Assembly (NCBI GenBank): GCA_021818465.1
Contig: JAKAEA010000001.1
Span: 1-39,971 of the forward strand
DNA length: 39,971 bases
Origin: a bacterium
GTDB lineage: Bacteria > Patescibacteriota > Minisyncoccia > Phycocordibacterales > JAKAEA01
Reading direction: 5' to 3'
The notes below the pieces were generated by a model. It searched no databases, was not told where the DNA came from, and worked only from the letters and a program-made list of their open reading frames with translations. Shown here in pieces: positions 15,001 to 38,611 of this stretch. Made by a program: the position numbers and the translations under genes. Position 1 is the stretch's first letter, and each line of letters opens with the position of its first letter.

Positions 15001-15333
15001 ACTATCGCCACCAACAGCATCATCAGCCAATGATGTAAAGTATACCGGCTCATTGGGGCTACCGGCGGCGTTCAATGCGCCGGCAATATTTAAGTTTGCA
15101 TCTGCAGCAAACTTAACCACGGTGCCTGGTTCAATATAGAGTGTTGCTCCTGGGTCGACGGTTACCACACCAGACACTTCATAGGTACCATCGAAGACCG
15201 ACCACACGGTGTCGGTGGCTATATCGCCACCGACACGCACCACGCCCGCTGCTTGTGCTGGTACACAATCGGTCATAAAAACGCCTCCACCTAAAAGCGC
15301 CGCCCACAAAATACCGCTGTAAAAAAATTTCAT
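12085..15333 (-). CDS. secreted fusion protein: parallel beta-helix region + LCAT/PGAP1-like alpha/beta-hydrolase (lipase/acyltransferase) + C-terminal domains
   Basis: 1082 aa with a signal peptide (MKFFYSGILWAALLGGGVFMTDCVPAQA). Residues ~30-445 are repetitive G/S/T/V-rich beta-helix-like sequence ending in NWWGSADGP. The hydrolase part has VLFIPGIEASRLY, YPYDWRLDP, the nucleophile elbow VTIVAHSNGG (Ser600 codon 13534-13536), LGDNTVV and GHADILE. A Ca-binding-like DYDGDGVVD lies at 12277-12303. Confidence 0.7.
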   Translation of the reverse strand: MKFFYSGILWAALLGGGVFMTDCVPAQAAGVVRVGGDIATDTVWSVFDGTYEVSGVVTVDPGATLYIEPGTVVKFAADANLNIAGALNAAGSPNEPVYFTSLADDAVGGDSNGDGGATLPTASDRWGINFLTAGYSTISGAVIRYSGGGIFNLNTRLAIASSSISFMNNPVSVSHGKLTLTAVSFSHMYTGALWVYASSSAMIASTTVDDSRTDAVRVYGASTLSASKFLVRGVHNGSALIVYTSTTASCDRCVFADADGVAGTVAVYSGSNISLTHSKLEEATGTIATALELYDPAWDTALPGHSQATISNTVFDGGQNGITAFGPVILRLATTTIQNFSNDGIQLYDGATIAGEALQITKNSNAGIEMWSTVNGSVQNSDIVHNGQFGILSRTTAPFTAVENWWGSADGPYHATLNATGTGDAVSDNVTFSPWLHDSAEVDPHPVPCCSSVLFIPGIEASRLYATSSTLLGHLRKSANAKETKLWEPGFMTPLANLALDSSGASTRPIYTKDIIKTTNELLPVFNVDIYQKFSGVLDTLVSGGVIASWQAYPYDWRLDPKKLVEEGTARANAISRLQSMVTALAATSKTKKVTIVAHSNGGILAELLLNELQAEGKSNLLDKVVLVAVPQHGTPLAIPALLSGYGQEVGMGFILNASTAQKLAENMPAAYTLLPTAAYFKTAPMPAVVLDPSLNDISNLYSMYGAAISDAPTLSRFLRTAAYSAPHQQLLAIANKTLLTASSNEHAALDTWRAPSGINVIEIAGVGVSTLAATRYYARKPSFLGVLLGNSERMDMAPQMTKLGDNTVVTASAAAYIPTAFTYYVDLARYNSTHAENRGHADILETLPAEELLIDIVQGTVGTTASRNSALPPFVSTTIPRAYLASIAASSSEEKISVHSPVMLHVYDDQGRHTGPSTHSSVNLSIRDTSIIPIESKIPNSYYVPFGEGQYAAVPAGTAGKIVLQATAAGTATLDITLNGTTTEFADIPVAPGSIASVDLGTTTTPLNLDYDGDGVVDATFSSGEFDPRTYPAAIKKLMAAFERHPFGEDMLEKIKDTIQTIENRFKILPHQKLTYFRDGV

Positions 15334-23637: not shown

Positions 23638-24120
23638 TTAAAATGGAATATCGTCGGGATTAATTTCTTCTGATGGGTACTCAATAGTATCAGCTCCGAT
23701 TGGTTTGTCAACAGAGGCCGCGTCAGACGCACCTTGACCCGCACTGCTAGCGGCACTCGCCTCGCCTCCACGATTACCAGTGGTCCCACCACCCATGCGC
23801 GGTCCAAATTGCACACGATCAGCAACAATTTCCGTACGATATTTCTTTTGGCCGTCTTGAGCGTCCCACGAGCGGGTTTGAATGCGACCTTCTACAAGCA
23901 CCGACGAACCTTTTTTAAGATACTGCGAAACTGTTTCAGCCTGTCGACCAAACACTACAATATTATGAAAGTCGGTCGCTTCCTGACGAGCACCGTTTTT
24001 ATCTTTAAAAACACGATTCGTGGCAACACTGAAACTAGCGACACCAATTCCAGAGGGCAATGAACGAAGTTCTGGATCGCGCGTTAGGTTGCCAATTATA
24101 AACGCTTTATTGAGATACAT
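23638..24120 (-). CDS. ssb: single-stranded DNA-binding protein
   Basis: 160 aa with an OB fold starting MYLNKAFIIGNLTRDPELR, a Gly-rich tail and the acidic tip DDIPF. It lies between rpsF and rpsR, the conserved operon arrangement. Confidence 0.93.
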   Translation of the reverse strand: MYLNKAFIIGNLTRDPELRSLPSGIGVASFSVATNRVFKDKNGARQEATDFHNIVVFGRQAETVSQYLKKGSSVLVEGRIQTRSWDAQDGQKKYRTEIVADRVQFGPRMGGGTTGNRGGEASAASSAGQGASDAASVDKPIGADTIEYPSEEINPDDIPF

Positions 24121-24178
24121 AGGTGAACAAAATTATAAATAATACGAACCAAGGAGCGGATTAACGGCTTTGCAGCGC

Positions 24179-24676
24179 TTACACAACAAGACTTTCAAGT
24201 GTCTTTTCAAGTTCAGCTTCATTAATGGGCTGTTTTTCGGTCTCATGAGAAGTTTCTGTTGCATCAATTCTTGGTGCAGGACTGGTGGCGACAACAGTTT
24301 TTAAGCTTACTCGAGGTGAAGACTGGGCTTCGTCCTTAACTGTTTTGATAATCATAAAACGCAAAAAGTGTTCATATGCGTCACATTCTCGTTTTAGAAA
24401 TTCCGCAGCCGCAGCTTGACCTTGAAACTTAACCCAACCAAAATAAGCCTTGTCAAACTTTTTTTTCTGACCAGATACGCCGTGAACCATTTGATACATC
24501 AGAGAAATGAGCTTGGGAGAATCTTCGGAAATGACTTCAACGTCGGCTTTTTTAAGCATATCCTTAATCACCTTCACTTCAGCGGGAATCTGCTCCTCTG
24601 TTAGTGTTGGAACTAAAAGATACCCGAGCTCATATATTTTTTTGCCGTTAGTGTCGGACATTTGTTCGGTTGCCAT
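24179..24676 (-). CDS. rpsF: 30S ribosomal protein S6 (with C-terminal extension)
   Basis: KIYELGYLLVPTLTEEQIPAEVKVIKDMLKK and YFGWVKFQG fit S6. The ORF extends upstream to 24715 (MHLQAACG...). The ATG at 24676 (MATEQ...) is the more plausible start. Confidence 0.8.
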   Translation of the reverse strand: MATEQMSDTNGKKIYELGYLLVPTLTEEQIPAEVKVIKDMLKKADVEVISEDSPKLISLMYQMVHGVSGQKKKFDKAYFGWVKFQGQAAAAEFLKRECDAYEHFLRFMIIKTVKDEAQSSPRVSLKTVVATSPAPRIDATETSHETEKQPINEAELEKTLESLVV

Positions 24677-24763
24677 AGTAGCCACAAGGGTACCACAAGC
24701 GGCTTGCAAGTGCAACCATGCACACTAGCCTAACACCAGCATTTCGACTATAGCAGACGGGTG

Positions 24764-25558
24764 TTAAAATTCCGCTGCATTTTTTCTCAAAAAAAGTTCA
24801 AAAGCATTTTTAACCAGAATTTTTGCCACACTGTCAATATCACTGCCTTTTATAGTGGCAATTTTTCGGGCAATTTCTTCCACATACAGTGGAGTATTGC
24901 GTTTGCCCCGATGGCTATGTGGGGCCGCATACGGCGAATCGGTTTCAATCATCATCCGCTCAAGTGGCACATACGCTACCGTTTCATCGTATTGATTAGT
25001 AAACGTAATCGGACCTGTAAACGAAATATAAAATCCCAAATCCAAGCACTTTTTAGCAATGTCTGGCGAAGAAGTAAAAAAATGAAAATCTCCTCGTACG
25101 CGCTCCCCCACTTCCCGCTTTTTTGCATTTAAAATATCTAGCACATCGGGATAGGCATCACGACAATGAATAATGAGCGGCTTGTTCGTGGTACTGGCAA
25201 GATCAACGTGCTCTTCAAAAATCTGCCGCTGTCGTTTCTTATCTTCCGCCGTAAGCGTTCGACTATAATCCAAGCCGCATTCGCCAATAGCAACAACTTT
25301 TTTTTCTTCAGCGAGTGTACCTAGCCCATCCACCGATTCACGGGCATCGAGTGGATGTATACCAACTGCCGCAAAAAAATGTGAGTGTTTTTCGGCAAGT
25401 ATAAGAGCTTGACGTGACGTAGCTACAGTAGTTCCAACAGTAATCGTCGCTATTTTCTGGTTAGCCATTTCAGCGATAATGGCCTCCCTGTCAGCATCAA
25501 ATTGCGGAAAATTGAGATGCGAGTGTACGTCAAAATAGCGAATTTCTTCTGGCTTCAT
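24764..25558 (-). CDS. tatD: TatD-family metal-dependent hydrolase/DNase
   Basis: 264 aa with DVHSHLNF, GECGLDY, IHCRDA, DFHFFTSS and ETDSPY. Confidence 0.9.
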   Translation of the reverse strand: MKPEEIRYFDVHSHLNFPQFDADREAIIAEMANQKIATITVGTTVATSRQALILAEKHSHFFAAVGIHPLDARESVDGLGTLAEEKKVVAIGECGLDYSRTLTAEDKKRQRQIFEEHVDLASTTNKPLIIHCRDAYPDVLDILNAKKREVGERVRGDFHFFTSSPDIAKKCLDLGFYISFTGPITFTNQYDETVAYVPLERMMIETDSPYAAPHSHRGKRNTPLYVEEIARKIATIKGSDIDSVAKILVKNAFELFLRKNAAEF

Positions 25559-25564
25559 GGCGAT

Positions 25565-27055
25565 TTATTCCTTCCGCGGGAACAGTGGCGCTTGAGGCAT
25601 CGTATTCTCACGCACCAGTGTTTTAATTTTCTCAGCGGTCTCCGGCATAATTGGCTTAAGCATGTGCCCAATTTTATATAATTGCCCCAAAAGAAGCTCA
25701 ATAATTTTCTTTGCCTTCTCAAAATCGGTTTTAATAAGCACAAACGGCTGCTCTTTTTGGATTAACTCATCAGCAAAACGTATATGCTGCCAAATTTCCG
25801 CGCAGGCTTTATTTAATTCATATCGATCAAACGCGTCAAAATATTCTTTCTCGCCAGCTAAAGCCTCAAAAAAGCGCTGCTTCGGCTCAACTAAAATGAC
25901 ATTGTTTACTGTCGCCATTTTCATTACTCGACTTACTAAATTGCCCAAACCATTGGCAAGCTGCGCATTGTAAGCGGTTTTAAAAAGTTCGAGAGAAAAC
26001 GGACTGTCTTCAAAAGAACTTAGCTCCGCCAACACGTAGTATCGTAGAGCATCGACGCCATATTCAGTGATAATATCGAATGGACTAATGGTATTGCCGA
26101 GCGACTTAGACATTTTTATACCACCGACGCCGGTAACAAAACCATCGACAACGATGTGATCACTTGTTTTCAAACCAGCCGCCAGCAACATAGCTTGCCA
26201 AATAGCCGCCTGTTGTCGAAGATTATCCTTACCGCAATACTGTACTTTTATACTGTCTTCACTCTGCCAAAATTTTTGAAAATCACTATTATCAGGCCAA
26301 CCGAGAGCGGAAATATAACTAACAAGCGCTTCGAACCATACGTACATAACATGCTCCGCATCGTCAGGAACCTCTACACCCCATGGCATTTTCGACTTCA
26401 ACCGCGAAATACTAAAATCTTTCAGGCCTCGCTCGACAAAAGCTTTCACTTCAACGGTTCGCATCACATCGAGCGCAAATTGTGGAGTCCGCGGCGCATA
26501 CAATGCAAGCAGTTTTTCTCGTATTCTCTCATCTGAAAATTTGAAAAAATAATTTTCTTCATCAATAATTTCTATTTTAAGATTAGGATGGAGTACACAA
26601 TGACCATTAACGAGCTCCGAGTCTGTTTTTTCCAGTTCGCAACCTACACAATATTTTATTTGATGTTTTTTCAGCTCAATGAAGCCATTTTTCTTACAGA
26701 GTAGCCAAAACTTTTTTGCAGCTTCACTATGGTGCGGATCGGTCGTTCGCGTAAAGTGAACGGGAAAAATTTCTCGATCCCCCGTGCGGCCGATATTCAA
26801 AACACTGACTAAATCTTTAAATTTCTGCACATGTGGCTTGATATATGCTTCCGGTGTCTGACCAGCTTTTTGGGCATTCTGATAAATTTTTAGACCGTGC
26901 TCGTCGGTACCGGTATGAAAAAACACATCATACCCCTGAGCTTTCCGAAAACGTGCTATCGTGTCGGCACGAATAATTTCTACAGCAAAACCGATATGCG
27001 GCTCGGCATTGACGTAGGGCAATGTGGTAGTGATATACAATGATTTTTTTGACAT
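25565..27055 (-). CDS. metG: methionyl-tRNA synthetase (short form, no C-terminal tRNA-binding domain)
   Basis: 496 aa with the HIGH-type motif YVNAEPHIGF, an exact KMSKS (IKMSKSLGN) and the knuckle CVGCELEKTDSELVNGHCVLH. Confidence 0.93.
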   Translation of the reverse strand: MSKKSLYITTTLPYVNAEPHIGFAVEIIRADTIARFRKAQGYDVFFHTGTDEHGLKIYQNAQKAGQTPEAYIKPHVQKFKDLVSVLNIGRTGDREIFPVHFTRTTDPHHSEAAKKFWLLCKKNGFIELKKHQIKYCVGCELEKTDSELVNGHCVLHPNLKIEIIDEENYFFKFSDERIREKLLALYAPRTPQFALDVMRTVEVKAFVERGLKDFSISRLKSKMPWGVEVPDDAEHVMYVWFEALVSYISALGWPDNSDFQKFWQSEDSIKVQYCGKDNLRQQAAIWQAMLLAAGLKTSDHIVVDGFVTGVGGIKMSKSLGNTISPFDIITEYGVDALRYYVLAELSSFEDSPFSLELFKTAYNAQLANGLGNLVSRVMKMATVNNVILVEPKQRFFEALAGEKEYFDAFDRYELNKACAEIWQHIRFADELIQKEQPFVLIKTDFEKAKKIIELLLGQLYKIGHMLKPIMPETAEKIKTLVRENTMPQAPLFPRKE

Positions 27056-27058
27056 AGG

Positions 27059-28330
27059 TTATGCCAACTGAACACGTTCACGTAGCGTGGCGTCATCCGG
27101 CAATGGTCCAACGCCCGCGAAATTGAGTTTGGTATCAACAAAAAGATCTTGGGCCACGCGGCGCACATCGGCGGCAGTAACTTTCTTAATTTCAGCGATA
27201 AGCTGTTCGGGTTTTTTGAGTGGTCGTCGCAATACTTCTTGATGACCGTAAAATTCAGCGATACGATCGGACCCTTCTAAATCCAAGAGAAGCGCCCCAG
27301 CGAGATGCTGTTTAGTTTTTGCTAATTCTTCAGCGCCCACCAAATCAGTTTTTAGTTTTTTAAACTCAGCTAAAATTGCATCGAGCGCCTCCCCCACGCG
27401 TTTCGTATCACACCCCAGCGATACAGCAAGAATGCCGTGATCGGTGAGTGCATCGTAGCCAGCGCGGACGTAATAGCCAATACCCATTTCTTCGCGCAAG
27501 CGTAAAAAGAGTCGCGAGCTCATACCACTTCCCAAAAGGGCGGTGAGCACTTCAGCAGCCACTTGGCGTTTGTGTCCAGCCTTATATGCCCGTACACCAA
27601 TAACAATATGACTTTGGTCGGTAGGTCGACGCTCAACGACAATCGCCGGCGCCTTTTGTACTTCTGTAACCGGCACTTTCGCGCCTTTTTTAGCGCGCCG
27701 AACTGTTCCAAAAATCTTTGTGAGCTGTTTAAGCACCACTCGTTCTGAAAAGCCACCGGCAACAATAATTGTGGTCGCCGGCGCAACATAGTGTTCGGTA
27801 CGATAGTGTAAAAAATCATCGCGGCCAAATGAACGAACAGTTTCCTTGGTGCCCGCAATACTCCAACCCGCTGGCTGATCGTCATAGAGCACTTTCATAA
27901 ACAATTCCTGCACGTGCCGCTGCGGCATATCGTGGTACATATTAATTTCTTCTACAATAACCCCTTTTTCTTTTTCAATTTCAGCAGCAGGAAAAGTGGA
28001 GTTGAGATAAATATCGCTCACCACATCAAGCAGAAGAGGTACATGCTCCTTTGCTGCTTTGGCCCAGTAGCCGGTAAATTCCTCTGACGTAAAAGCATTG
28101 TACTGTGCTCCAAGCGCATCAAGTTCGTGACTAATATCTTTAGCCGTTGGTCGCTTCAGTGTACCTTTAAAACACATATGTTCCAGAAAATGAGAGAGGC
28201 CGTTTGTTGTATGATTCTCATACTTTGAACCCGCCTCAACCATCGCTAACACGGTTGCTGTCGGTGCTCCGGTTATTGGCACCGTAATGATTCGTAAGCC
28301 GTTAGGCAAAACTGTTCGTTTAAATGTCAT
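27059..28330 (-). CDS. M16-family (insulinase/pitrilysin-like) zinc peptidase
   Basis: 423 aa with the inverted zinc motif HxxEH in GLSHFLEHMCFKGT. The start overlaps the glyQS stop by 4 nt (ATGA). Confidence 0.88.
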   Translation of the reverse strand: MTFKRTVLPNGLRIITVPITGAPTATVLAMVEAGSKYENHTTNGLSHFLEHMCFKGTLKRPTAKDISHELDALGAQYNAFTSEEFTGYWAKAAKEHVPLLLDVVSDIYLNSTFPAAEIEKEKGVIVEEINMYHDMPQRHVQELFMKVLYDDQPAGWSIAGTKETVRSFGRDDFLHYRTEHYVAPATTIIVAGGFSERVVLKQLTKIFGTVRRAKKGAKVPVTEVQKAPAIVVERRPTDQSHIVIGVRAYKAGHKRQVAAEVLTALLGSGMSSRLFLRLREEMGIGYYVRAGYDALTDHGILAVSLGCDTKRVGEALDAILAEFKKLKTDLVGAEELAKTKQHLAGALLLDLEGSDRIAEFYGHQEVLRRPLKKPEQLIAEIKKVTAADVRRVAQDLFVDTKLNFAGVGPLPDDATLRERVQLA

Positions 28331-29658
28331 GCCAAGAGTCTACCAGAAAGTTCAGAAATTTTCAGCCGTTCTTGATTACCGCTATCGCGATCGCGTACCG
28401 TCACCGTATCATCTTCAAGCGTCTGAAAATCAATAGTGACGCACCACGGCGTACCAATCTCATCTTGGCGGCGATAACGTTTGCCAATATTTCCATTATC
28501 ATCAAAAGCGATGCGCGCGCGACTGGAAGCGGTTTTTTTAGTTTCGCGCAGAAGTGCATACACTTCCCTCGCCTTCTCCACAAGCGGCGGTTTGTTTTTT
28601 AAAAGCGGGAACACAGCAATCGTCACTGGAGCAATACGTGGAGATAATTTCAAGAAACTGCGTGGTTCTCCCCCGAGTTCGTCTTCAGTATACGCATCAG
28701 TCAAAATTGCTAACACAGTACGGTCAACACCGAGCGATGGCTCAATAACGTGCGGCACAAATTTTTCCTTAGCGGCTTCATCAAAATATTCGAGAGACAC
28801 GCCGCTTCCCTTTTGGTGTGCACCAAGATCAAAGTCAGTGCGATAGGCTAAACCGTACAGCTCTTTACGGCCAAAGGGATACTCGAATTCAAAATCAATA
28901 GTGCGCTTGGAGTAGTGCGCCCGGTCTTCGGCCGGTACGTCTAATTCATGTATGCGTTCACGACGTAAACCAATGCGTTCAATCCATTGCCATATCAATT
29001 GCCGAAACTCTTCAAAAAAGCGTTCCCAGTCATGAGGACGAACAAAATACTCAATTTCCATTTGTTCAAACTCGCGCGAACGAAAGAGGAAGTCGCGAGG
29101 AGCAATTTCATTACGAAACGCTTTACCGATTTGCGCCAAACCAAATGGTAACTCCGGATGAAATGAGTCTACGATATTTTTAAAATTCACAAACATACCT
29201 TGGGCCGTTTCTGGTCGTAAATATGAAATGGCCGCCTCGTCCTGAGCCGCCCCAACGTGGGTCTTGAACATCATATTAAACTGACGCACATCACCGAGTA
29301 GACCGCCGCAATCGGGACATTTTTTTAGATCAGCTATATGATCGGCGCGAAAACGGTGATGACATTTTGAGCACTCCACGAGCGGATCAGAAAAACCGCC
29401 GACATGACCGCTGGCTTTCCACACGTTTTGATTCATTAAAATCGCCGCGTCTACACCATACATATCTTCGCGCTCATCCACAAACATTTGCCACCACAGT
29501 GCCTTAAGATTATTTTTGAGAGCCACACCCAGAGGACCATAATCCCACGTGCCAGCCAAACCACCGTAAATCTCTGAGCCTTGATACATGAAACCACGCC
29601 GTTTGGCTAAGGAAATAATTTTTTCCATCGTGTTGTCTGTAGTGTTTTTTTGATTCAT
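28327..29658 (-). CDS. glyQS: glycyl-tRNA synthetase, alpha2 (GlyQS) type
   Basis: 443 aa with RRGFMYQGSEIYGGLAGTWDYGPLG, GKAFRNEIAPRDFLFRSREFEQMEIEYF and a C-terminal anticodon-binding region (VTIAVFPLL...GKRYRRQDEIGTPWCVTID). Confidence 0.93.
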   Translation of the reverse strand: MNQKNTTDNTMEKIISLAKRRGFMYQGSEIYGGLAGTWDYGPLGVALKNNLKALWWQMFVDEREDMYGVDAAILMNQNVWKASGHVGGFSDPLVECSKCHHRFRADHIADLKKCPDCGGLLGDVRQFNMMFKTHVGAAQDEAAISYLRPETAQGMFVNFKNIVDSFHPELPFGLAQIGKAFRNEIAPRDFLFRSREFEQMEIEYFVRPHDWERFFEEFRQLIWQWIERIGLRRERIHELDVPAEDRAHYSKRTIDFEFEYPFGRKELYGLAYRTDFDLGAHQKGSGVSLEYFDEAAKEKFVPHVIEPSLGVDRTVLAILTDAYTEDELGGEPRSFLKLSPRIAPVTIAVFPLLKNKPPLVEKAREVYALLRETKKTASSRARIAFDDNGNIGKRYRRQDEIGTPWCVTIDFQTLEDDTVTVRDRDSGNQERLKISELSGRLLA

Positions 29659-29676
29659 GAAATTACAATGATTGAA

Positions 29677-31596
29677 TTACTGTTGCACAAAACCATTTTG
29701 ACCACCGTAGGTTGGATCACTGGAAATGTCCGTGGTGAGCGAACCAGCTGAAGCCGACACGGGCACATTCACAAACGCATCGGTACCGTTAAACGAAATA
29801 TCATTAACAATATCCGGCGCGGTGCCAACTTGATTAACCGTTGGATCAACTTCTACTTGAAATGCCACCGAAGCAACGGGCGCAGCGCCACCAGCCGGTA
29901 ACGTCCCTGGAGTCCAGGTAATTGTGTTTGAATTAGTATCAAACGTTACCGACGCATTGCTAGGACTAATATTATTGAGCCATTTAACGTAGGCTGGTAA
30001 GGTCGCCGTAACCGTGCCACCAGACACTGTATTGGAACTATTGGTTAATGTCCAGACAATCGTATAGGTGGTTGGTGTATCTGCGCGCGGCGGCACAAGA
30101 CCAGTATTGGTAAACGGCCCGGTGGAATATACAGCGTGTGCAAGCAAACCAACAGCTGTTGTCAATCGTGCCGACAGCGTAGATGTTGAAGAAATAGGAG
30201 CCGCACCAGAAACGGCGCCGTATTCTTGACCGCTGACATTAGCAGATAGTGTTATTGTTCCATTGTCTAATCCCGCGAGCACACTGGCTGGTAATGTTGC
30301 GAACGAAAATTGCAACGATATCTGCTGACCAGGACTTATGACACCGAGATCAGGATCTGATAGACGATCCCACGTGATTGCCTGTGACGATTGACGGTAG
30401 ATACCATTTTCAGCAGGATTCACACTTGTTGGATCGAGCGCATTGCCGTTGAGCGTTACCGTCGTCACCGCATTTAATAAATCAACGGGTAAATTATTAG
30501 TAATGGTAAGTGTTGCATTAGAAGAACCTGGCTGAATCACAACATTGTTTCCATTAGCTGTACCAACAGACATCGCCAATGCCACAGGCGAACGCTGGAT
30601 AGTGAGCGTTTGATTTTGAGCGAGATAAATAACCCCTAATTTTTGCGGATCCACCTGGCTCTGGGTACCAACGAGAAATCGAACTGTTTCCTGATCATTC
30701 TCCTGGCCCTGTAAGTAGCCACGAATAGTAATGGTTTCGGTACTACTAGCAGACAACGCTGGAAAGAGCCATTCTGAATTGTTGCTATAGCTTGGCGCTG
30801 GCGTAGAACTAGCAAACTGAAAACCAAACGGATACTGTGCCGTAACTAACACATTTGATGGCGGATTATTGGAGTTTGCAGACAGTGTCAGTGAAAAATT
30901 AACGGGGGCGCCGGCAGGCGTTTGACTGGGCGCGTTTATATTCATCGCCAGCGGCGCTGAACTAATTTCTACAGTATATATTTCTTTCTTTTGATATAAC
31001 GCATTATCGTTGGCGATAGAATATTGAATTGTTGCGGTAATTTGTTCCGTAGCATGCTCAGCCCCGTAGATAACCGCTTCCACATTGTGTGTCATCGATG
31101 TACCAGAGGCAATTGTTCCCAACACATCAGACTCGTGAAGCAATGTTGCTGACGTATTAGTCGCTTCGACGGTACCATTCGGAAAGGTCAGATATAGTCT
31201 GGCATTTTCCATAGAAGCTATATTGTTGTTTTTTATTACTACAGAGAAATCGAGTGGCGTACCAGCCGCTATGGTTACTGGCCCCACAAATGAAACAGCG
31301 ACATTATTATTAGAAACTGTATTAAAACCACGATAAATGATAACCCCAGCAATGCTAGCACACACCAAAAAAAATATGAGCGATCCCAAAAAAAGTGCTT
31401 TTAGAGAAAAGCCGTGACCATGACCCTGAGCTTCATCAGCAAAAAGTTCCTCGGTGTCTTTCCAGCGTCGAGGACTCGTGTTCGCAGTGGTAGGTAATGT
31501 GGGCTTAGGAAAATTTGGTGTATCAGAAAAATCTCGATCATAAATTCTATTACCGAGTTTTTCCAGGCCGTCAAAATCTGGTTTTTTCGGATTCAT
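29677..31596 (-). CDS. hypothetical type-II membrane-anchored surface protein
   Basis: 639 aa with a ~65-aa cytoplasmic N-terminus and one TM (ALFLGSLIFFLVCASIAGVIIY). About 550 aa of T/S/N/A-rich, beta-type repetitive extracytoplasmic sequence follow. Confidence 0.55.
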   Translation of the reverse strand: MNPKKPDFDGLEKLGNRIYDRDFSDTPNFPKPTLPTTANTSPRRWKDTEELFADEAQGHGHGFSLKALFLGSLIFFLVCASIAGVIIYRGFNTVSNNNVAVSFVGPVTIAAGTPLDFSVVIKNNNIASMENARLYLTFPNGTVEATNTSATLLHESDVLGTIASGTSMTHNVEAVIYGAEHATEQITATIQYSIANDNALYQKKEIYTVEISSAPLAMNINAPSQTPAGAPVNFSLTLSANSNNPPSNVLVTAQYPFGFQFASSTPAPSYSNNSEWLFPALSASSTETITIRGYLQGQENDQETVRFLVGTQSQVDPQKLGVIYLAQNQTLTIQRSPVALAMSVGTANGNNVVIQPGSSNATLTITNNLPVDLLNAVTTVTLNGNALDPTSVNPAENGIYRQSSQAITWDRLSDPDLGVISPGQQISLQFSFATLPASVLAGLDNGTITLSANVSGQEYGAVSGAAPISSTSTLSARLTTAVGLLAHAVYSTGPFTNTGLVPPRADTPTTYTIVWTLTNSSNTVSGGTVTATLPAYVKWLNNISPSNASVTFDTNSNTITWTPGTLPAGGAAPVASVAFQVEVDPTVNQVGTAPDIVNDISFNGTDAFVNVPVSASAGSLTTDISSDPTYGGQNGFVQQ

Positions 31597-31647
31597 TTAT
31601 GAAAGTATACCATGTTCCACATCTTCACTCATATAATGTTTTATGTA

Positions 31648-31684
31648 TAAAAATAGCCCCCAGCTGCACGGTACAACTGGGGGG
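31648..31684 (-). terminator. intrinsic terminator after recO
   Basis: Minus-strand RNA reads CCCCCAG-13 nt loop-CUGGGGG followed by CUAUUUUUAU. The stem is 31657-31663 paired with 31677-31683. Confidence 0.55.
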
Positions 31685-31746
31685 CGGGATGGGGAAGGGT
31701 AACCTTTATTATGATATAAAACGAAAACCATTATGTCAAAAGCTAT

Positions 31747-32337
31747 TCACAATTGCGACTGATGCAACGAAAAATTAATCGTGGTCACAAGTGATCTACG
31801 TTTTTTTTGAGCAGCAACAATTAAATCCTGACTCCAAGAATCAGTTAAAAATAATTTCAAATCATCGCCAGCAGAACTATAGCCAAGATTGTACAATATG
31901 CGCAACACCACTATATGTTCAAACGCTGCTGCTGCAACATCAGAAAATTCTATGCCACGTGCAAAATGGAGCGCCGCCAGTATTTCAACATAGAGCTGCT
32001 CACTCTTCTCTTCCCCGGGCACCAGGCGAATTAGTAAGCGAAAAATGCGCGCGATTGCTTCCACGAACGGCCGATTGGTGCGTTGCTGCCAAAAAATATT
32101 TGTATCAGCCGAGGCATTCGTAATGCGCCAATGTTCTTTTCCCCGCACCAGTGACACAGAGAGCACCGAAAATTCCTGCAATGCATAACGCAATTTTGAA
32201 ACTTCACGACGAATCCCCTGCGCCGTAGCCCACACTATTCCTAATTGCGGCGTAAAGAGCGTATAGCTTCGATCAGCCTCACGGCTCGGCGCACTTGCGA
32301 GCACCATCGCTGGTGTAGTGTAAATGTGGTGCGACAT
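31747..32337 (-). CDS. recO: DNA repair protein RecO (short form)
   Basis: 196 aa. The N-terminal OB pattern is PAMVLASAPSREADRSYTLFTPQLGIVWATAQGIRREVSKLRYALQEFSVLSVSLVRGK. The later FEHIVVLRILYNLGYS resembles the RecO helical domain. No Cys4 zinc finger is present. Confidence 0.6.
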   Translation of the reverse strand: MSHHIYTTPAMVLASAPSREADRSYTLFTPQLGIVWATAQGIRREVSKLRYALQEFSVLSVSLVRGKEHWRITNASADTNIFWQQRTNRPFVEAIARIFRLLIRLVPGEEKSEQLYVEILAALHFARGIEFSDVAAAAFEHIVVLRILYNLGYSSAGDDLKLFLTDSWSQDLIVAAQKKRRSLVTTINFSLHQSQL

Positions 32338-35300
32338 TAAAATTTCAAATCAAGAGTAAATGTTATGTTTTCTATAGTGATAGTATTGTTGGCACTCAAT
32401 AAAACCGTATCAAAAACGATACGCTTGGTTCTAGTCACCTGTCGAATATCAGCAGCGAAGACTTCAATAATTTTTCTCCCTTCCGACGATGTGGCGACCG
32501 TAAGCATAATATCTTGACTTGGTTGCAAGCCAGCATTTTTACGTAACTCTTGCACAGATCGGATAAATTCTCGGGCTATGCCTTCATGTTTCAGTTCCGG
32601 CGTGATTGTAGTATCTAATTTGACCAGTTCGGTTTGCGAAGCATTTTTTGAGATTTTCTTTATATTTACTTCATCTCTAACGAGCGCGGCGAGGTGCTCG
32701 TCATCAAGCACCTGTGCAAAAGCGCCATTAACCGTCAACGCAGCCAGCGGCTGACGAATTTTAATACCCGCCGCCGCTCGCGCCTCCAGCGCGAGCGATA
32801 CTAGCTCGCGAGTTTTGTACATATTGTTAATTAAAGAGACCGTTTCATTTTTTTCCAAGATTGGCACCCAGGGCCAGCGTTCTACATGGACGCTTTCTTG
32901 ATCATTTTTTGTTTTCACTTTTTGATACAAATCTTCGGCGAGAAATGGCATAAATGGTGCGAGACTTTTTGCGAGTTCGCGCAAAACAAAACGAGTAGTA
33001 GCAATAGCGTCACGAGCAGTGTCGGCATTTTTGAAGCGATCGCGAGAGCGACGAATATACCAGGTTGAAAGGTCGTCGATAAACTGTGCGAAGGGACGCG
33101 CAGCAGCATCGAGCCTGTAGCTATCCAATTCTCTTGTTATCTCCCCTTGCATCTCTGACAATGTCGCCAGAATCCAGCGATCAAGAATGTTGGGCGAATC
33201 AGTATTGGGCTCAACAGTTCCATCTGCATAGAGCTCATAAAATGAGTAAACATTATCTAAGCGATTGATAATTTTTTTAACGACTTCATCCAAACCTTTT
33301 TCAGAAAATGCCAAGTCTTCGGCTTCAACGACCGGCGAGGAAAGGAGATAGTAGCGCAATGCATCAGCGCCATATTTATCCAAAACAAAACGGATGTCAG
33401 GATAATTTTTAAGTCGCTTGGACATTTTTTGCCCGTCTTCGGCCAAAACAATACCATTCACTACTACGTTTTCATACGGCGCACAATCAAATAGTGCCGT
33501 ACTTAAAATAAGCAGTGTATAAAACCAGCCGCGCGTTTGGTCCTGACCTTCAGCGATGAAGTTAGCGGGGAAACGTGGCAGCTTTTTTTTATTTTCTTGC
33601 TCAAAAGGAAAATGAATTGACGCAAACGGCATAGAACCAGATTCGTACCAGGTATCAAAGACATCAGGAACGCGTTTCATGTTCCCCGAGCAACCCTTTG
33701 CTGTACAAGGAAATTCCACCGCATCGATATAGGGCCGATGCATATCGAAATTAAACTGTGGATCGTGGGGCAAAGCGGCAAACGGCAATGTGCGAATCTC
33801 GGCATTGTCCATAAAACCAACGTTGTATACGCCAAGTGGTTCAGCTAAATGTAGCGCGGCCGAAAGCGGCGCAGCATGACTGATAATTAAAATATTTTTA
33901 CCTTTGTGAGCGGCATCAATTTCATAGAAAAATTCACCGACACGTTTTTGCTCGTGGACTTTTGTCTCATCATTTTTAGACACATCACCAACGCGATAAG
34001 CTGCATTACGTTCCTGACGACTCTTGCCACCAAAAGCAAACGCGCCGAGCTCGTGGAGACGTTCATCGGTTATGATTTTTCCCTGAAAACCGATTTCCTG
34101 GGCCATAATTTTTGCTGTTTGTTGCGTCCGCTCAAAGGGCGAAGCAAAAATCAAGTCAATTTTTTTGCCAACCAAATCCTCGGAAAGTTTTTTAGCTGCT
34201 TCCCTCACCTGCCGCTCGCCTTCAGATGTTAACGGATCATGCGCTTGCTCATTGGGACTGATAACATTGGCCACGTTACTATGCGCTTGACCGTGGCGCA
34301 TCAAAAAATAATTATTACGCTGCAACTTTGTATACAGTGTTTTTACCGAGTCAACAAATTCTAGTTCGCCACATTCATCACATTTCCACACCGGCAACGG
34401 CGCGCCCCAAAAGCGCGAACGCGATACCGCCCAGTCACGGGCGTTCTCCAGCCACGTACCGAAGCGTCCCTGACCGATTTCTTCCGGCACCCAACGCACC
34501 TTTTTATTTTCCTCAACGAGTTTTTCTTTGAGTGTAGTCACCTGCACAAACCACGAACTCGTCGCGTAGTTTAAAAGCGGCGTGTCACAGCGCCAACAGT
34601 GCGGATAGCTGTGGGTGATTTTTTCTTTAGCAAAAAGCGTGCCGTGATGCGCCAAGTATTTGATAATTTCAATATCTGCTTTCTGGTGCGCATTCGGCTC
34701 TTCCGCCGTCGGTCGCGGCTTGACCTGCTGCCCCGCAAAATCCGTCACCTCTTTTTTAAAGCGCCCATCCATGCCGACGTGCTGGATGAACGGTAGCTCA
34801 GCCGTTTGCGAGAGATTATAGTCGTCCTCGCCAAATGCCGGCGCGATGTGCACAATACCCGTGCCATCGGTCGTGGTCACAAAATCCGCACCAACCACAC
34901 TGTACAGATGTTCGCGATGCTTCACGTCAGTCGCCTGCTCATAGTACGGAAACACCGGTTTGTATTTTTTGCCGAGCAATTCCTTTCCTTTAAAACTATG
35001 GCTCTCAACAAAAACATCACCAGCATCTTTAGGTATTGGAAGATGTGTTTTTGCAAAGTCGGCAATTACATATGTTCCAAGAAAATTTTCTATTTTTACT
35101 TTTATATAGTCAATCTTCGGATTCACCGCGAGCGCCGCGTTACCCGGCAATGTCCAGGGCGTCGTCGTCCAGGCCAGCAAAAACGTGCCAGGCTCGTCAA
35201 CCAGTTCAAACTTCACATACGCCGAAAGATCGCTGATATCTCGATAATTTTGTCCGACTTCAAAATTGGAAAGTGTCGTCTCACAACGCGGGCACAGGTG

Positions 35301-35903
35301 CATCGGCTTGAATCCTTGATAGACCAGGTGCTTATCGTGCAATTGTTTGAATGACCACCAGATACTCTCGGTGTAGCGCCAATCCATCGTTAGGTAGGCG
35401 TGGTCCATGTCCACGAAGCGGCCGGTGCGCGGCACGATATCCTTCCACAGCGTGTCGTAGCGCAAAACGCTCGCGCGGGCCGCGGCGTTAAATTTTTCCA
35501 CGCCGTAGAGCTCAATGTCTTTGCGCGTGGAAAGTCCGAGCTCCTTCTCAATCATATTTTCAATTGGCAAACCGTGACAATCCCAACCCCAGCGTCGCGG
35601 TACACGGTAACCGCTCATCGTTTTGTAGCGCGGTATGACGTCCTTGATGGTGCCTGCGAGAATGTGCCCGTAGTGCGGCTCGCCCGTGGCAAACGGCGGC
35701 CCGTCGTAGAAAATAAATTCTAACTCCGTACCATCTTTAATGAGAGGCTTCTTGTCGAGAGTTTTTTGAAAAATATCGTGATCGCGCCAAAACTGGAGCG
35801 TTGCCTCCTCGCGCTTGGCGATGACAGATTTTACATTTTCTTCTTTATTTCTTTTTTGTTCCGGCTTTGCCGTTATATCGGCTGCGGAGTCCTCTTTAAC
35901 CAT
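32337..35903 (-). CDS. ileS: isoleucyl-tRNA synthetase (type 2-like) with an internal histidine-phosphatase domain insertion
   Basis: 1188 aa with HIGH as PHYGH (res 76-80), a CP1 editing region (LAWTTTPWTLPGN), KMSKS as KMSKR and DVFDTWYESGSMPF. Residues ~528-716 are an extra domain; see the separate feature. Confidence 0.93.
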   Translation of the reverse strand: MVKEDSAADITAKPEQKRNKEENVKSVIAKREEATLQFWRDHDIFQKTLDKKPLIKDGTELEFIFYDGPPFATGEPHYGHILAGTIKDVIPRYKTMSGYRVPRRWGWDCHGLPIENMIEKELGLSTRKDIELYGVEKFNAAARASVLRYDTLWKDIVPRTGRFVDMDHAYLTMDWRYTESIWWSFKQLHDKHLVYQGFKPMHLCPRCETTLSNFEVGQNYRDISDLSAYVKFELVDEPGTFLLAWTTTPWTLPGNAALAVNPKIDYIKVKIENFLGTYVIADFAKTHLPIPKDAGDVFVESHSFKGKELLGKKYKPVFPYYEQATDVKHREHLYSVVGADFVTTTDGTGIVHIAPAFGEDDYNLSQTAELPFIQHVGMDGRFKKEVTDFAGQQVKPRPTAEEPNAHQKADIEIIKYLAHHGTLFAKEKITHSYPHCWRCDTPLLNYATSSWFVQVTTLKEKLVEENKKVRWVPEEIGQGRFGTWLENARDWAVSRSRFWGAPLPVWKCDECGELEFVDSVKTLYTKLQRNNYFLMRHGQAHSNVANVISPNEQAHDPLTSEGERQVREAAKKLSEDLVGKKIDLIFASPFERTQQTAKIMAQEIGFQGKIITDERLHELGAFAFGGKSRQERNAAYRVGDVSKNDETKVHEQKRVGEFFYEIDAAHKGKNILIISHAAPLSAALHLAEPLGVYNVGFMDNAEIRTLPFAALPHDPQFNFDMHRPYIDAVEFPCTAKGCSGNMKRVPDVFDTWYESGSMPFASIHFPFEQENKKKLPRFPANFIAEGQDQTRGWFYTLLILSTALFDCAPYENVVVNGIVLAEDGQKMSKRLKNYPDIRFVLDKYGADALRYYLLSSPVVEAEDLAFSEKGLDEVVKKIINRLDNVYSFYELYADGTVEPNTDSPNILDRWILATLSEMQGEITRELDSYRLDAAARPFAQFIDDLSTWYIRRSRDRFKNADTARDAIATTRFVLRELAKSLAPFMPFLAEDLYQKVKTKNDQESVHVERWPWVPILEKNETVSLINNMYKTRELVSLALEARAAAGIKIRQPLAALTVNGAFAQVLDDEHLAALVRDEVNIKKISKNASQTELVKLDTTITPELKHEGIAREFIRSVQELRKNAGLQPSQDIMLTVATSSEGRKIIEVFAADIRQVTRTKRIVFDTVLLSANNTITIENITFTLDLKF
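33756..34322 (-). other. histidine phosphatase (PGAM/His_Phos_1-like) domain embedded in ileS
   Basis: All five family blocks are present in order. They are FLMRHGQAHSN (His537 codon 34293-34295), LTSEGERQVREAA, IFASPFERTQQTAKIM, DERLHELGAFAFGG and ILIISHAAPL (His676 codon 33876-33878). The domain is in frame with IleRS sequence on both sides. Confidence 0.8.
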
Positions 35904-35941
35904 AGATGGCTAAGATTCTAGCATTTTTTTTCGGATTATGC

Positions 35942-36406
35942 TTACTGAAACCACATTAAAAAAATAATGATGATGATTACTACTAAAATAAGTACTGAAA
36001 CAATCCATGACCACCTAAGGGTGAGCTCATCAATACAAGTAGTTTTTGTAGAAAGAGGTACTTGGTAAATTTTGGTCATAAGTCGCACACCTTTCTTTTC
36101 AGCATTGTTTATAAAACGAGCATAAAGGATTAGAGAGATGGGTATTATTAAGAGTAATACTGAAATTAGTATTTTAACTATAAATAGAACATGAATGGAG
36201 AGAAAAATATCATTGAATGATGCTAGGATTAAAAGAGCTGCAGCAACACTACTAATGAGAGGAAAGGATGCTAGCTTGGCGTTTGTTATCTGGAACAATT
36301 GATCATTCACAGTGTTAATGACTCGTAACTTATCCACGGGAGAAGCGGAATTAAATTCCTCTTTTTGTTGCTGCTCTTTTTCGGTAAGTTTGTTATCCAT
36401 ATACAT
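35942..36406 (-). CDS. hypothetical small membrane protein (AT-rich gene)
   Basis: 154-aa ORF with a hydrophilic N-terminus and about 3-4 TM segments (e.g. WIVSVLILVVIIIIIFLMWF). GC content is visibly far lower than in flanking argS and ileS. Confidence 0.5.
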   Translation of the reverse strand: MYMDNKLTEKEQQQKEEFNSASPVDKLRVINTVNDQLFQITNAKLASFPLISSVAAALLILASFNDIFLSIHVLFIVKILISVLLLIIPISLILYARFINNAEKKGVRLMTKIYQVPLSTKTTCIDELTLRWSWIVSVLILVVIIIIIFLMWFQ

Positions 36407-36411
36407 TTAAT

Positions 36412-38181
36412 TCACATTCTTTCCGGCGCGGCGATACCCAGAAGCCAGAGGCCGTTGCGGAGAACGGTGCCGATAGCGGCGGCGAGAGCAAGTTTTGCCT
36501 GCGAAGATTCTTTTGCGCTGGGGTCAATAATTTTCTCGGCGGCGTACCAGCGATTAAATTCACCGGCGACAAGGGTGAGATAGGTGGTAACGTACTGCGG
36601 CGCGTAGTCGGCGGCGGCGCGAGCGACAATTTCCGGGAAGCGGTAGAGGAGGTGCGTAAGTGGTGCGGCGTTTTCCGGCAGAGCTCCGACGATTGGTGCG
36701 ATCCCCTGCTCTTTTGCTTTCGCGAGTAGCGCTTGGGTTCGAACAAAAGTGTATTGGAGATATGGTCCGGAATCACCCTCCAACGAGATCGACTGTTCCT
36801 CATCAAAAATAACATCGCGGCCAATAGATTGCTTGAGCACAGCGTACTTAATCGAGGCCACGGCAATTTGATTAGCGATTTTTTCGTCGCGATGCTCCAT
36901 TTTTTCCAACACGCGCGCCGCTAGATCAGTCAGCAGCGCTTCGCCGGTAATAACGTTGCCGGTGCGCGAGCTCATTTTGCCATCGGCGAAGCGCATCATG
37001 CCGTGACCAATGTGGTGGGTACGCTTGGCAATTTCGGGATAAATTTCAGTGAGTGCGGCCAGCACCACTTTGAAATAGTCATTCTGCTCATTAGCGGTAA
37101 TCACTACAGAGCGATCGAAGTCGTGGAGCTCAAATTTTTTCTTAGTAAGACCGAGCTCTTTGGCTTCATAGGTGGGAACTCCGTGCGAAGTGATAAAGAC
37201 ACGATTGTGGAGGCCGCGGGCTTTAGCATCGGGCTTTTTTTCGCCAGGATAAATGATGGCACCATCACTTTTTTCAAAGACGCCGCGAGCGAGCGCTGCC
37301 GCAACAATCTCCTCGCCGAAAGCGGCGATGTCGCTCTCCCAGATTTGGTGATCAAATTTTGAGCCGAGTCGCTGAAAAATTTCGTTGAAATGCTCTATGC
37401 TGGCGCGCTTGCCGAACACGTAGAACTCGTTGGCCGTCGAATCGGCGTGGGTGTAAATTTTATGGTTCAGCTGGATAATTTCCTCTTTAACCGCATCGTT
37501 TTGCTCATATGTTTGGGCGCCGTGCACGTAGGCTTTCCCAACAAAATCAATTTTTTCTGAAAGTGACATCGAGCGCAGCTCGGCGAGCGCTTGGTCGGTC
37601 GACGTGCCAGGAAATTTTTCAGCAGCAAGCTTTTGCATACCCCAAACGGCCATGGCGACGTTCAGCCCGACGTCGGAGCCGTAGGTAGCGCGACGTACTT
37701 CAGCCCCTTCATATTGCGCCAGTCGCGAGAGTGATTCACCAATAGCATTACTCATCAAGTGACCGATGTGGAGCGGTTTAAAAGCGTTCGGGTCAGTATA
37801 TTCGATGATAATTTTTTCCTTGAGAAGTTTAGTATTTTTTCCAAAATCATCGCCCGTTTTCAAAATATCGCTCAGCGAATCAGTAAAGAATTTTTCTGTT
37901 AAAAAGAAGTTGATGAAGCCGGCGCCGGCGGTTTCTACTTTTTTAATCGGCGTGGCGGCATCGTTTTTTAATTCAGCTTCAAGGGCGGCAAGAATTTTTT
38001 TTGCCAGCGCTTGCGGATTTTCACCGAGTTTTTTTGCCAGCACCAGGGCGATATTTGTCGCATAGTCGCCGAATTTCAAATCCGCCGGGTGGTCTAGACT
38101 AATCACGACGTCGTCGTTGGCGATATCGGCGCGTTCGAGTGCCCGTCTGATGAGGGTTGTGAGTGTCTCTTGTATGTGCAT
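36412..38181 (-). CDS. argS: arginyl-tRNA synthetase
   Basis: HIGH is exact (FKPLHIGHLMSNAIG) and the C-terminus ...APERM is typical of ArgRS. I chose the start at 38181 (MHIQETL, compare E. coli MNIQALL). The ORF runs 12 codons further, to 38217, which would overlap dut by 35 nt. Confidence 0.9.
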   Translation of the reverse strand: MHIQETLTTLIRRALERADIANDDVVISLDHPADLKFGDYATNIALVLAKKLGENPQALAKKILAALEAELKNDAATPIKKVETAGAGFINFFLTEKFFTDSLSDILKTGDDFGKNTKLLKEKIIIEYTDPNAFKPLHIGHLMSNAIGESLSRLAQYEGAEVRRATYGSDVGLNVAMAVWGMQKLAAEKFPGTSTDQALAELRSMSLSEKIDFVGKAYVHGAQTYEQNDAVKEEIIQLNHKIYTHADSTANEFYVFGKRASIEHFNEIFQRLGSKFDHQIWESDIAAFGEEIVAAALARGVFEKSDGAIIYPGEKKPDAKARGLHNRVFITSHGVPTYEAKELGLTKKKFELHDFDRSVVITANEQNDYFKVVLAALTEIYPEIAKRTHHIGHGMMRFADGKMSSRTGNVITGEALLTDLAARVLEKMEHRDEKIANQIAVASIKYAVLKQSIGRDVIFDEEQSISLEGDSGPYLQYTFVRTQALLAKAKEQGIAPIVGALPENAAPLTHLLYRFPEIVARAAADYAPQYVTTYLTLVAGEFNRWYAAEKIIDPSAKESSQAKLALAAAIGTVLRNGLWLLGIAAPERM

Positions 38182-38182
38182 A

Positions 38183-38611
38183 TTATTTGCGGCCAGTGCT
38201 ACCGAAGCGGCCTTCACCGCGAGCCGATTCAGACAGCGTATCAGTTTCTTCTATTTTGGCAATTTCCACGGGGAAAAGGACGAGCTGAGCGATCTTGTCG
38301 CCTGGTTCAACAGTGTACGACTGATCGCTGAGGTTCACGAGATGTACGTTGTATTCGCCGCGATAGCCGGCGTCGTAGACGCCACCCATAGTGTGCAAAC
38401 CTGCCTTACTGATACTCCCCTTGTCTTTAACGATGCCTCCATAGCCGTGTGGAAATTCTATGGCCACGCCGATATTAAAAAAATGATGCTCACCCGGCGC
38501 CAACGTTTTTTCTTCCAGTGCATATAAATCTAAACCGACATCACCAGGATGCGCATAGCTCGGCACTTTGGCCTCGGGCTTCAACTTTTTGATTTTGATA
38601 GTGATTGGCAT
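38183..38611 (-). CDS. dut: dUTP diphosphatase
   Basis: 142 aa with AHPGDVGLDLYA, GVYDAGYRGEY, KIAQLVL and RGEGRFGSTG. Confidence 0.93.
   Translation of the reverse strand: MPITIKIKKLKPEAKVPSYAHPGDVGLDLYALEEKTLAPGEHHFFNIGVAIEFPHGYGGIVKDKGSISKAGLHTMGGVYDAGYRGEYNVHLVNLSDQSYTVEPGDKIAQLVLFPVEIAKIEETDTLSESARGEGRFGSTGRK

Follow-up and report, generated by a model that had tools for sequence, protein, structure and literature searches.

A histidine-phosphatase domain embedded in an isoleucyl-tRNA synthetase of Patescibacteria, with free relatives encoded between argS and ileS

Aminoacyl-tRNA synthetases are among the best-studied enzymes, and their accessory domains for editing, tRNA binding and signalling have each exposed new biology. 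The stretch of DNA analyzed here, 39,971 nucleotides (nt) of contig JAKAEA010000001.1 from a Patescibacteriota bacterium (hereafter the window), raises the question of what a phosphatase is doing inside such an enzyme: its ileS gene encodes an isoleucyl-tRNA synthetase (IleRS) in the middle of which lies a histidine-phosphatase (His_Phos_1) domain. A sequence-only reading had placed this domain at 33756-34322 of an open reading frame (ORF) of 1188 amino acids (aa); the ORF was borne out, the interval corresponds exactly to residues 528-716, and the motifs quoted at that time were found again when they were re-read from the DNA. We are highly confident of the fusion and of its origin from a separate gene of the same operon, while the complete proposal, that an active accessory phosphatase was captured from an operon neighbour and meets its substrate at the synthetase, seems to us modestly probable. 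The parts of the gene used below are as follows.

32337-35903, minus strand: ileS ORF (1188 aa plus stop), type-2 IleRS with an internal His_Phos_1 domain, from TIGR00392 and Pfam.
34323-35903, minus strand: IleRS residues 1-527, comprising the first half of the Rossmann/HUP core, connective peptide 1 (CP1) with the editing domain, and the first half of the last connective peptide; aligns with solved IleRSs to residue ~524.
35664-35675, minus strand: HYGH motif (residues 77-80), read from DNA.
35151-35168, minus strand: editing motif TTTPWT (residues 246-251), read from DNA.
34371-34382, minus strand: first half of the zinc knuckle, C508-D-E-C511, aligned to Thermus thermophilus C461/C464.
33756-34322, minus strand: inserted His_Phos_1 domain, residues 528-716 (PF00300; the Pfam envelope 533-704 is 33792-34307).
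34290-34298, minus strand: R536-H537-G538, the phosphate-binding Arg and the presumed nucleophilic His, with roles assigned by analogy to the His_Phos_1 family.
34275-34277, minus strand: N543, phosphate pocket (117/119 homologues).
34128-34130, minus strand: R592, second phosphate-binding Arg, in S588-P-x-x-R-T (119/119).
34050-34052, minus strand: E618, presumed general acid/base, in D-x-R-L-x-E (119/119).
33876-33878, minus strand: H676, second catalytic His, in the motif S-H (118/119).
33762-33770, minus strand: P-H-D in the conserved post-insert linker.
33690-33707, minus strand: second half of the zinc knuckle, C733-T-A-K-G-C738, aligned to T. thermophilus 'C-A-C'.
33414-33428, minus strand: KMSKR motif (residues 826-830), read from DNA.
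32340-33755, minus strand: IleRS residues 717-1188, comprising the post-insert linker, the second half of the catalytic core, the anticodon-binding domain and the type-2 C-terminal domains.

Is the host a working synthetase in the first place? The NCBIfam ileS model TIGR00392 gave a score of 851 bits (cut-off 621) in an alignment that breaks at residue ~532, and Pfam recognized tRNA-synt_1 (also split), Anticodon_1, DUF5915 (1094-1185) and His_Phos_1. The full-length AlphaFold2 model had a mean predicted local distance difference test (pLDDT) score of 89.9 and a predicted template modelling (pTM) score of 0.83, and its best Foldseek matches were the type-2 IleRS of Priestia megaterium (IleRS2, 8C8U/8C8V), the yeast enzyme (8WND) and the T. 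thermophilus enzyme (1ILE), with E-values down to 4e-85. Outside the insert the match to these enzymes is fully collinear and includes the HYGH/KMSKS motifs, the CP1 editing domain, the Cys4 knuckle and the DUF5915 C-terminal domains; unlike any solved IleRS, the window protein has 189 extra residues, forming an enzyme domain, in the zinc-knuckle loop. The window ileS thus encodes a complete type-2 IleRS, no second ileS was detectable in the 40-kb window, and, as judged from the motifs, the insert appears to leave HYGH, KMSKR and the editing site of the synthetase intact.

The place of the insertion was defined by comparison with solved structures. The sequence-only reading had assumed that type-2 IleRSs carry only a short linker here, and this proved correct: query residues 524 to 720 correspond to ~10 residues in the Candida (6LDK, 496 to 506) and yeast (8WND, 489 to 499) enzymes, and solved IleRSs in general have ~10-20 residues at this site. 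When the insert was deleted in silico, the flanks became collinear with residues 433-570 of T. thermophilus IleRS (E 2.4e-44), with C508/C511 aligned on C461/C464 and C733/C738 on the 'CAC' of that enzyme. The aligned Cys residues bind zinc in 1ILE, and the knuckle Cys residues are kept in 108 of the 120 homologues. Because the flanks are collinear and the Cys residues align, the domain is looped out between the two halves of the Cys4 knuckle, in the last connective peptide. In the P. megaterium IleRS2 the catalytic core consists of residues 40-168 and 513-632 (PMC10485003); since the core resumes only at 513, the equivalent of the insertion point (~residue 480) falls in the last connective-peptide element, just ahead of the return to the Rossmann fold. 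When the CCA end passes from the editing to the synthetic site or back, that region of the connective peptide moves as well (PMC11685878).

A precise, in-frame insertion of a whole gene could also be an assembly chimera, or an intein or other selfish insertion that is removed before the enzyme works, and the family consensus Pro-His-Asn following the domain is superficially in keeping with the latter. We regard the probability of such an artefact as negligible, and the reading is effectively refuted. Among the 120 best matches of the IleRS in a search of 5.8 billion proteins, 119 carried PF00300 at the same place; these proteins, with 1144-1325 aa and 51-77% identity to the window protein, originate from Patescibacteria assemblies made independently of each other (NCBI, JGI, ENA and Logan), so that mis-assembly, which had been left open at first, is contradicted by more than 100 independent occurrences as well as by the G+C content, which runs continuously across the insert with no compositional break. 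The architecture is therefore not peculiar to the window genome but is the norm in a large clade of Patescibacteria. The exclusion of an intein, which had been argued from both junctions, held in one part and had to be revised in another. No HINT, LAGLIDADG or other homing-endonuclease signal was found in the Pfam search of the window IleRS, and the N-terminal junction K-L-Q-R-N-N-Y is without a Cys/Ser nucleophile; at the other end, the family consensus does contain P-H-N (P712, H713, N714; P-H-D in the window), but this is followed by P/x and not by Cys/Ser/Thr. With no HINT domain, no junction nucleophiles and a histidine-phosphatase fold, the intein was ruled out. Many database proteins start at 'MRHG' or near residue 457; they were considered as split-gene intermediates and were set aside, because their N-termini fit truncated calls at contig ends, made at conserved internal Met/Val/Leu codons.

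We then asked whether the inserted domain is still an enzyme. PF00300 matched residues 533-704 with an E-value of 4.2e-23 and 82.4 bits (gathering score 21.7), covering profile positions 2-177 of 194 and splitting the tRNA-synt_1 match, as had been foreseen for an in-frame His_Phos_1 insertion. Conservation was counted in an alignment of the 120 closest database IleRSs, 119 of them insert-bearing. R536, H537, G538, R592 and E618 are present in 119/119 insert-bearing homologues, H676 in 118 and N543 in 117, which agrees with the earlier view that the domain is intact and not decayed; E646 and R654 are likewise invariant. The catalytic set is also retained in nearly all of the 160 domain copies examined, including each copy of proteins that have several, although the domain as a whole is less conserved than its host (mean identity to the window 39% for the domain vs 60% for the rest of the IleRS). 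These patterns show strong purifying selection on the phosphatase site. The insert blocks within the full-length model had pLDDT values of 83-97 and formed a discrete alpha/beta His_Phos_1 fold, the point that a structure prediction had been suggested to check, and a model of the domain by itself reached a pLDDT of 84.9 and a pTM of 0.86. Taking sequence and models together, we consider it quite likely that the domain is a catalytically competent phosphatase. The synthetase/phosphatase bifunctionality proposed for the protein accordingly stands as a domain architecture with both motif sets intact, and bifunctionality at the level of enzymatic activity is suggested by those motifs.

It is very improbable, in our estimation, that the module is catalytically silent and acts as a structural strut, as a surface binding tRNA or protein, or as a phospho-metabolite sensor tuning the IleRS. 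The insertion lies in the connective peptide beside the path of the acceptor end, the stand-alone homologues described below are very basic, non-catalytic appended domains occur in other synthetases, and a pure sensor would still need a phosphate pocket; but the near-invariant catalytic set together with E646 and R654 is the pattern of an enzyme, not of a scaffold.

If the domain is an enzyme, a simple explanation of its presence would be that it is a housekeeping small-molecule phosphatase or mutase (a phosphoglycerate mutase, a phosphoserine phosphatase or a PhoE-like enzyme) that hitch-hikes on ileS through genome streamlining and guaranteed expression, with no link to aminoacylation. This corresponds to the salvaged metabolic phosphatase piggy-backing on the synthetase gene that had been suggested at the outset; it is a live rival, although we judge it rather unlikely. 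Foldseek returned 307 PDB matches for the domain at E<=1e-3, of which the best 50 listed were all His_Phos_1 enzymes, and the closest of them act on small metabolites: PspA (4IJ5/4IJ6), the glucosyl-3-phosphoglycerate phosphatase GpgP (Rv2419c, 4PZ9), TIGAR (3E9D), PhoE (1H2E), CobC (6E4B) and HFP. The fold, the catalytic residues, the length (~190-210 aa) and the phosphatase-type motif after the Glu are shared with these enzymes, and the fit to the ~200-residue phosphatases had a template modelling (TM) score of ~0.7 and a root-mean-square deviation (rmsd) of 3.4-4.2 Å at ~21% identity. Their substrate-binding regions are not conserved, so that specificity cannot be transferred from them to the domain. 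Cofactor-dependent phosphoglycerate mutases (dPGMs) fitted worse, with an rmsd of ~6 Å. In NCBIfam the best equivalog match of the domain was a short archaeal dPGM model, but at 72-102 bits against a cut-off of 225, with 72.5-76.8 bits for dPGM_arch in the comparison with the mutases; the CobC model gave 50-99 bits (cut-off 163), the bacterial dPGM models at most 32 bits (cut-offs at least 300), and no equivalog reached its cut-off. Nor do the details place it among the dPGMs: the motif after the catalytic Glu is E-L-G-A-F (consensus E-[VIL]-x-x-G), and the domain has ~190 aa, about 40 residues fewer than dPGMs of 230-250 aa. This motif, D-x-R-L-x-E...G, is of the phosphatase type and not the mutase type E-R-H-Y-G. 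A further point on the side of a metabolic role is that Jaffe et al. (2020) reported several shallow Parcubacteria clades to lack phosphoglycerate mutase, or perhaps to have one that has diverged beyond detection (PMC7304191).

A link to defence or to phages was also considered and dropped. The PADLOC anti-phage profiles gave zero matches for the window domain and one marginal, unrelated match (E 4.6e-4) for a stand-alone relative (P0160), and in PHROGs the phosphatase matched only an unannotated His_Phos-like family.

Where did the domain come from? With the insert as query against 1.84 billion cluster representatives, 247 matches fell below 1e-10; the best 150 of the 247 comprised 92 IleRSs or IleRS fragments with the domain, 52 proteins of stand-alone size (<=235 aa, ~40% identity) and one arginyl-tRNA synthetase (ArgRS). 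The stand-alone family (~189 aa, exemplified by P0160) had 325 matches in metagenome-assembled genomes of Patescibacteria, and carries no names there other than 'histidine phosphatase family protein' or 'PhoE'. Lineages are named here as in the sources, for example as Patescibacteria, Paceibacterota, Minisyncoccia, Lloydbacteria, Staskawiczbacteria and 'Saccharibacteria'. Practically the complete stand-alone protein has its counterpart in the insert, from N-N-x-Y-F-x-x-R-H-G at about residue 3 to the last C-terminal strand. The two forms belong to the same clade, are 33-40% identical in the case of the window domain, and share the blocks N-x-Y-F-x-x-R-H-G...N, S-x-x-x-R-T-x-x-T-A, D-x-R-L-x-E, G-E, R and S-H; unlike the insert, the stand-alone protein is strongly basic and is encoded by a separate gene between argS and ileS.

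The position of that separate gene is strikingly constant. In three loci (L012, L014 and L016) the order is argS-phosphatase-ileS with gaps or overlaps of 1-3 nt, and the IleRSs, of 931, 818 and 946 aa, have no insert. When metagenomes were scanned with the stand-alone alignment, 80 loci were obtained, 69 with a stand-alone and 11 with an embedded phosphatase. Among the stand-alone loci, 52 were informative for the upstream side, and 50 of these have argS there in the same orientation; on the downstream side ileS was present in 50 of 53. Such a near-obligate slot between two synthetase genes exceeds what hitch-hiking of a housekeeping enzyme would lead one to expect. The two forms also exclude each other: the gap at the IleRS junction is 16-88 nt in 43/43 stand-alone loci with both IleRS halves and 604-646 nt in the 11 embedded ones, none of which has a stand-alone copy, and there were 0 loci with both. 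By these comparisons the domain belongs to a Patescibacteria-specific His_Phos_1 clade whose members, in other lineages, are encoded by a separate gene between argS and ileS, and an operon neighbour was probably internalised into a tolerant surface loop of the IleRS, probably more than once. The corresponding neighbours in the window are these.

36412-38217, minus strand: argS, ArgRS of 601 aa (Arg_tRNA_synt_N, tRNA-synt_1d, DALR_1).
35942-36406, minus strand: orf154, a hydrophobic low-G+C ORF, not a phosphatase, in the argS-ileS gap, the slot of the stand-alone gene elsewhere.
31747-32337, minus strand: recO-like gene (RecO_N), whose start overlaps the ileS stop; same order in loci L001, L009, L012, L016 and L018.

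No Pfam, PADLOC or PHROGs match was found for orf154 (G+C 0.34-0.37), and a hidden Markov model of the insert detected no further copy across the rest of the window. The genes form part of a block on the minus strand (23638-38217) that consists of argS, orf154, ileS, the recO-like gene, DUF11, a GlyRS-like class II gene, an M16 peptidase, metG, tatD, rpsF and ssb, and the order of this synthetase-rich block recurs in loci L009, L012, L016 and L018. Some loci contain additional genes. In L014, a CYTH (triphosphate-tunnel) gene at 8570-9160 stands between the phosphatase and ileS, and an RVT_1 gene at 4890-5663 lies upstream of argS. In L001, a gene with a weak HDIG/HD-domain match (4154-4804) directly follows ileS. 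A reverse-transcriptase (RVT_1) gene accompanied by a bAvd-like gene, as is typical of diversity-generating retroelements, occupies 12716-14078 in L016/L017, between ileS and recO in L016.

The capture does not seem to have been a single event. Embedding in the zinc-knuckle loop (site A) was found in the window clade, in L001, in the group L033/L049/L073/L082/L098 and in the group L061/L065. The phosphatases of the latter two groups are 45-48% identical to stand-alone proteins and 37-40% to the inserts of the window clade, and their host IleRSs group with the IleRSs of stand-alone loci. Embedding at site A occurs in at least two lineages, which differ in the relatives with which both their phosphatases and their host IleRSs group. 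Either this loop has taken up the gene repeatedly, or embedded and stand-alone states can change into one another; if the free protein docks at the loop to begin with, repeated insertion there would be no surprise. We also tried to count insertion events by a junction motif; the shared linker P-x-x-x-x-phi-D-x-H-R-P is partly present in the insert-less T. thermophilus IleRS, and the motif was abandoned for this purpose.

Fusions at other positions were observed as well. In three ArgRS clusters (P0267, P0271 and P0272) the domain sits at the C-terminus, right after the canonical end of the ArgRS, and in a neighbour-joining tree these three fusions fall in two places within the stand-alone clade, and therefore represent two events. 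Two such ArgRS-phosphatase fusions were located at 10001-12070 of L009 and 10001-12163 of L010; in L009 recO is directly next, with no ileS at that position. More distant His_Phos_1 domains, ~30% identical to the other groups, occur in IleRS loops after query residues ~456-466, ~763-778 and ~893-905, and single IleRSs contain two (P0122, P0220, P0193), three (P0182) or even four (P0121) copies, spread over as many as four loops and with the signature kept in almost every copy. Three of the multi-copy genes were located as follows.

L099, 6001-10260: IleRS P0122.
L100, 1228-5634: IleRS P0193.
L102, 4034-8173: IleRS P0220.

Because P0122 was found on six contigs of up to 1.06 Mb, the multi-copy proteins are real. 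Their gene neighbours (purA, DAHP synthase, SLH and Wzy proteins) are unlike the argS-ileS block, and these forms probably stem from other lineages by convergent recruitment. Internalisation that happened repeatedly, copy numbers reaching four and recruitment by convergence in other lineages are not what one would expect of a housekeeping enzyme that merely travels with ileS.

What, then, could a phosphatase do at a synthetase? A role linked to translation is favoured by the synthetase-specific operon and fusions and by the unusually basic stand-alone proteins, and we regard it as an almost even proposition, tilted slightly to the negative. The stand-alone proteins have a median isoelectric point of ~10 and a net charge of +10 per 100 aa, compared with +1 to +3 for the adjacent ArgRS and IleRS, and in Lys-rich lineages the embedded copies retain part of the basic charge. 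As evidence for RNA binding, or for a polyanionic partner in general, we keep this charge only as a weak hint, as it is missing from some embedded domains (see below).

The arrangement that we propose is one chain with two independent active sites, in which the phosphatase would project from the knuckle on two short conserved linkers and leave the synthetase core uninterrupted. By analogy with His_Phos_1 family chemistry, from which we have taken the roles of all these residues, His537 would attack a terminal phosphoryl group and itself become a phospho-histidine intermediate, with the phosphate held by Arg536, Asn543, Arg592 and His676, and Glu618 would serve as the general acid/base that protonates the leaving group, after which water would free the phosphate. 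The gain from the fusion would be an obligatory 1:1 co-production and the co-localisation of the phosphatase with IleRS; precise channelling between the two sites is unlikely, because the insertion sites differ between lineages. As candidate substrates we would put forward tRNA with a phosphate on its 3' end, or else a phosphoester or phosphoanhydride of nucleotide type that is connected with aminoacylation, and would rank an unrelated metabolite lower. An early suggestion that the domain hydrolyzes Ap4A made by the synthetase is chemically weak: the molecule lacks a terminal phosphomonoester, and its synthesis is not a known activity of ArgRS, to which the domain is also fused.

A more specific version of the translation-linked role would be a dedicated accessory of tRNA charging, in which the free protein docks on the zinc knuckle and either frees the CCA end of a 2'/3'-phosphate that blocks it, or of a (pyro)phosphate added by a toxin, so as to permit aminoacylation, or destroys a phosphorylated by-product or inhibitor, the captures hard-wiring a pre-existing complex. 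In this full form we think it improbable.

Several observations weigh against the proposal that the captured phosphatase meets its substrate at the synthetase. The nearest solved structures are only ~21% identical and have small metabolites, not RNA, as substrates, and the highest-scoring family model, although below its cut-off, is that of a metabolic mutase. The window domain and the L001 domain are not basic. The ArgRS fusions are rare (only 3 of the 120 nearest ArgRSs), and because argS is the upstream neighbour, loss of its stop codon suffices to produce them; we have therefore down-weighted them as proof of a general link to synthetases. In P0049, which is 64-70% identical to the window protein and nested in the window clade, argS is followed after 42 nt by an insert-less ileS and the locus (L018) has no phosphatase; this loss means that IleRS itself can do without the domain. 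The positions of the inserts are spread across the surface of IleRS, so that no fixed geometry relative to the synthetic or editing site is needed, and this would fit a purely expression-level benefit too. The scattered sites and the loss in P0049, by displaying IleRSs without need for the domain, count at the same time in favour of the housekeeping alternative. Finally, the trees are neighbour-joining trees of short domains and are poorly resolved at depth.

Other known systems resemble parts of this arrangement. An inserted accessory enzyme domain in IleRS has a curated precedent in NF040702, an IleRS with an N-acetyltransferase (GNAT) domain; the guest there is a GNAT placed in the editing domain, unlike that of the window protein, which with 344 bits stays below the model's cut-off of 1999. 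One protein among our matches (P0096, 1325 aa) carries both, a GNAT in the editing domain (after query residues ~284-303) and a His_Phos_1 domain at the zinc knuckle. The MupA and MupB models (NF000257 and NF000258) gave 663 and 703 bits, below their cut-off of 1900. Fusions of His_Phos_1 to a nucleic-acid or nucleotide enzyme are known from the mycobacterial RNase H/acid phosphatase (NF005567, a weak match of 56-82 bits) and from MutT1 (NF052459, Nudix plus histidine phosphatase), but these are end-to-end fusions with other partners, and their cut-offs of 326 and 475 bits were not reached. As MutT1 illustrates, nucleotide phosphoanhydrides can be substrates of such domains.

Neither the host, a type-2 IleRS, nor the guest, with its His_Phos_1 fold, is out of the ordinary; the combination is new. 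The belief that no such synthetase had been described was upheld as far as we could trace it: we found no description in the literature of an IleRS with an embedded histidine phosphatase, a 2026 survey of the domain architectures of 96,219 IleRSs does not mention a phosphatase, and a 2017 paper on synthetase fusions in the candidate phyla radiation does not mention the architecture. Database records label the homologues only 'isoleucyl-tRNA synthetase' or 'class I tRNA ligase family protein'.

The phosphatase and IleRS are connected by four ties, namely a near-obligate operon, mutually exclusive forms, repeated internalisation and convergent fusions elsewhere, and they are spread over a very large uncultivated radiation with minimal genomes, in which a gene that is kept can be expected to be of importance. 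Should the link prove functional, it would represent a new step tied to tRNA charging, for example the repair of tRNA ends or the removal of a by-product or inhibitor, and with one polypeptide and two assays it is directly testable. If the phosphatase only hitch-hikes, it would be a clean natural case in which an essential enzyme has taken up the product of a neighbouring operon gene as an internal domain, and a candidate for a 'missing' metabolic step in Parcubacteria.

Some features of the window apart from this locus are also worth recording. The 23S rRNA gene (6671-9981, minus strand) is 3311 nt long, compared with 2925 nt in the model, and has ~390 nt extra as an insertion or intron. The rRNA genes are unlinked, the 5' end of the 16S gene (1-378, minus strand) lying ~6 kb downstream of the 5S gene (6495-6604, minus strand) with protein genes between them. 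A protein of 1082 aa encoded at 12085-15333 (minus strand) combines a right-handed beta-helix with an LCAT-like alpha/beta-hydrolase region, and its gene is adjoined by that of a 660-aa protein with a peptidoglycan-binding domain.

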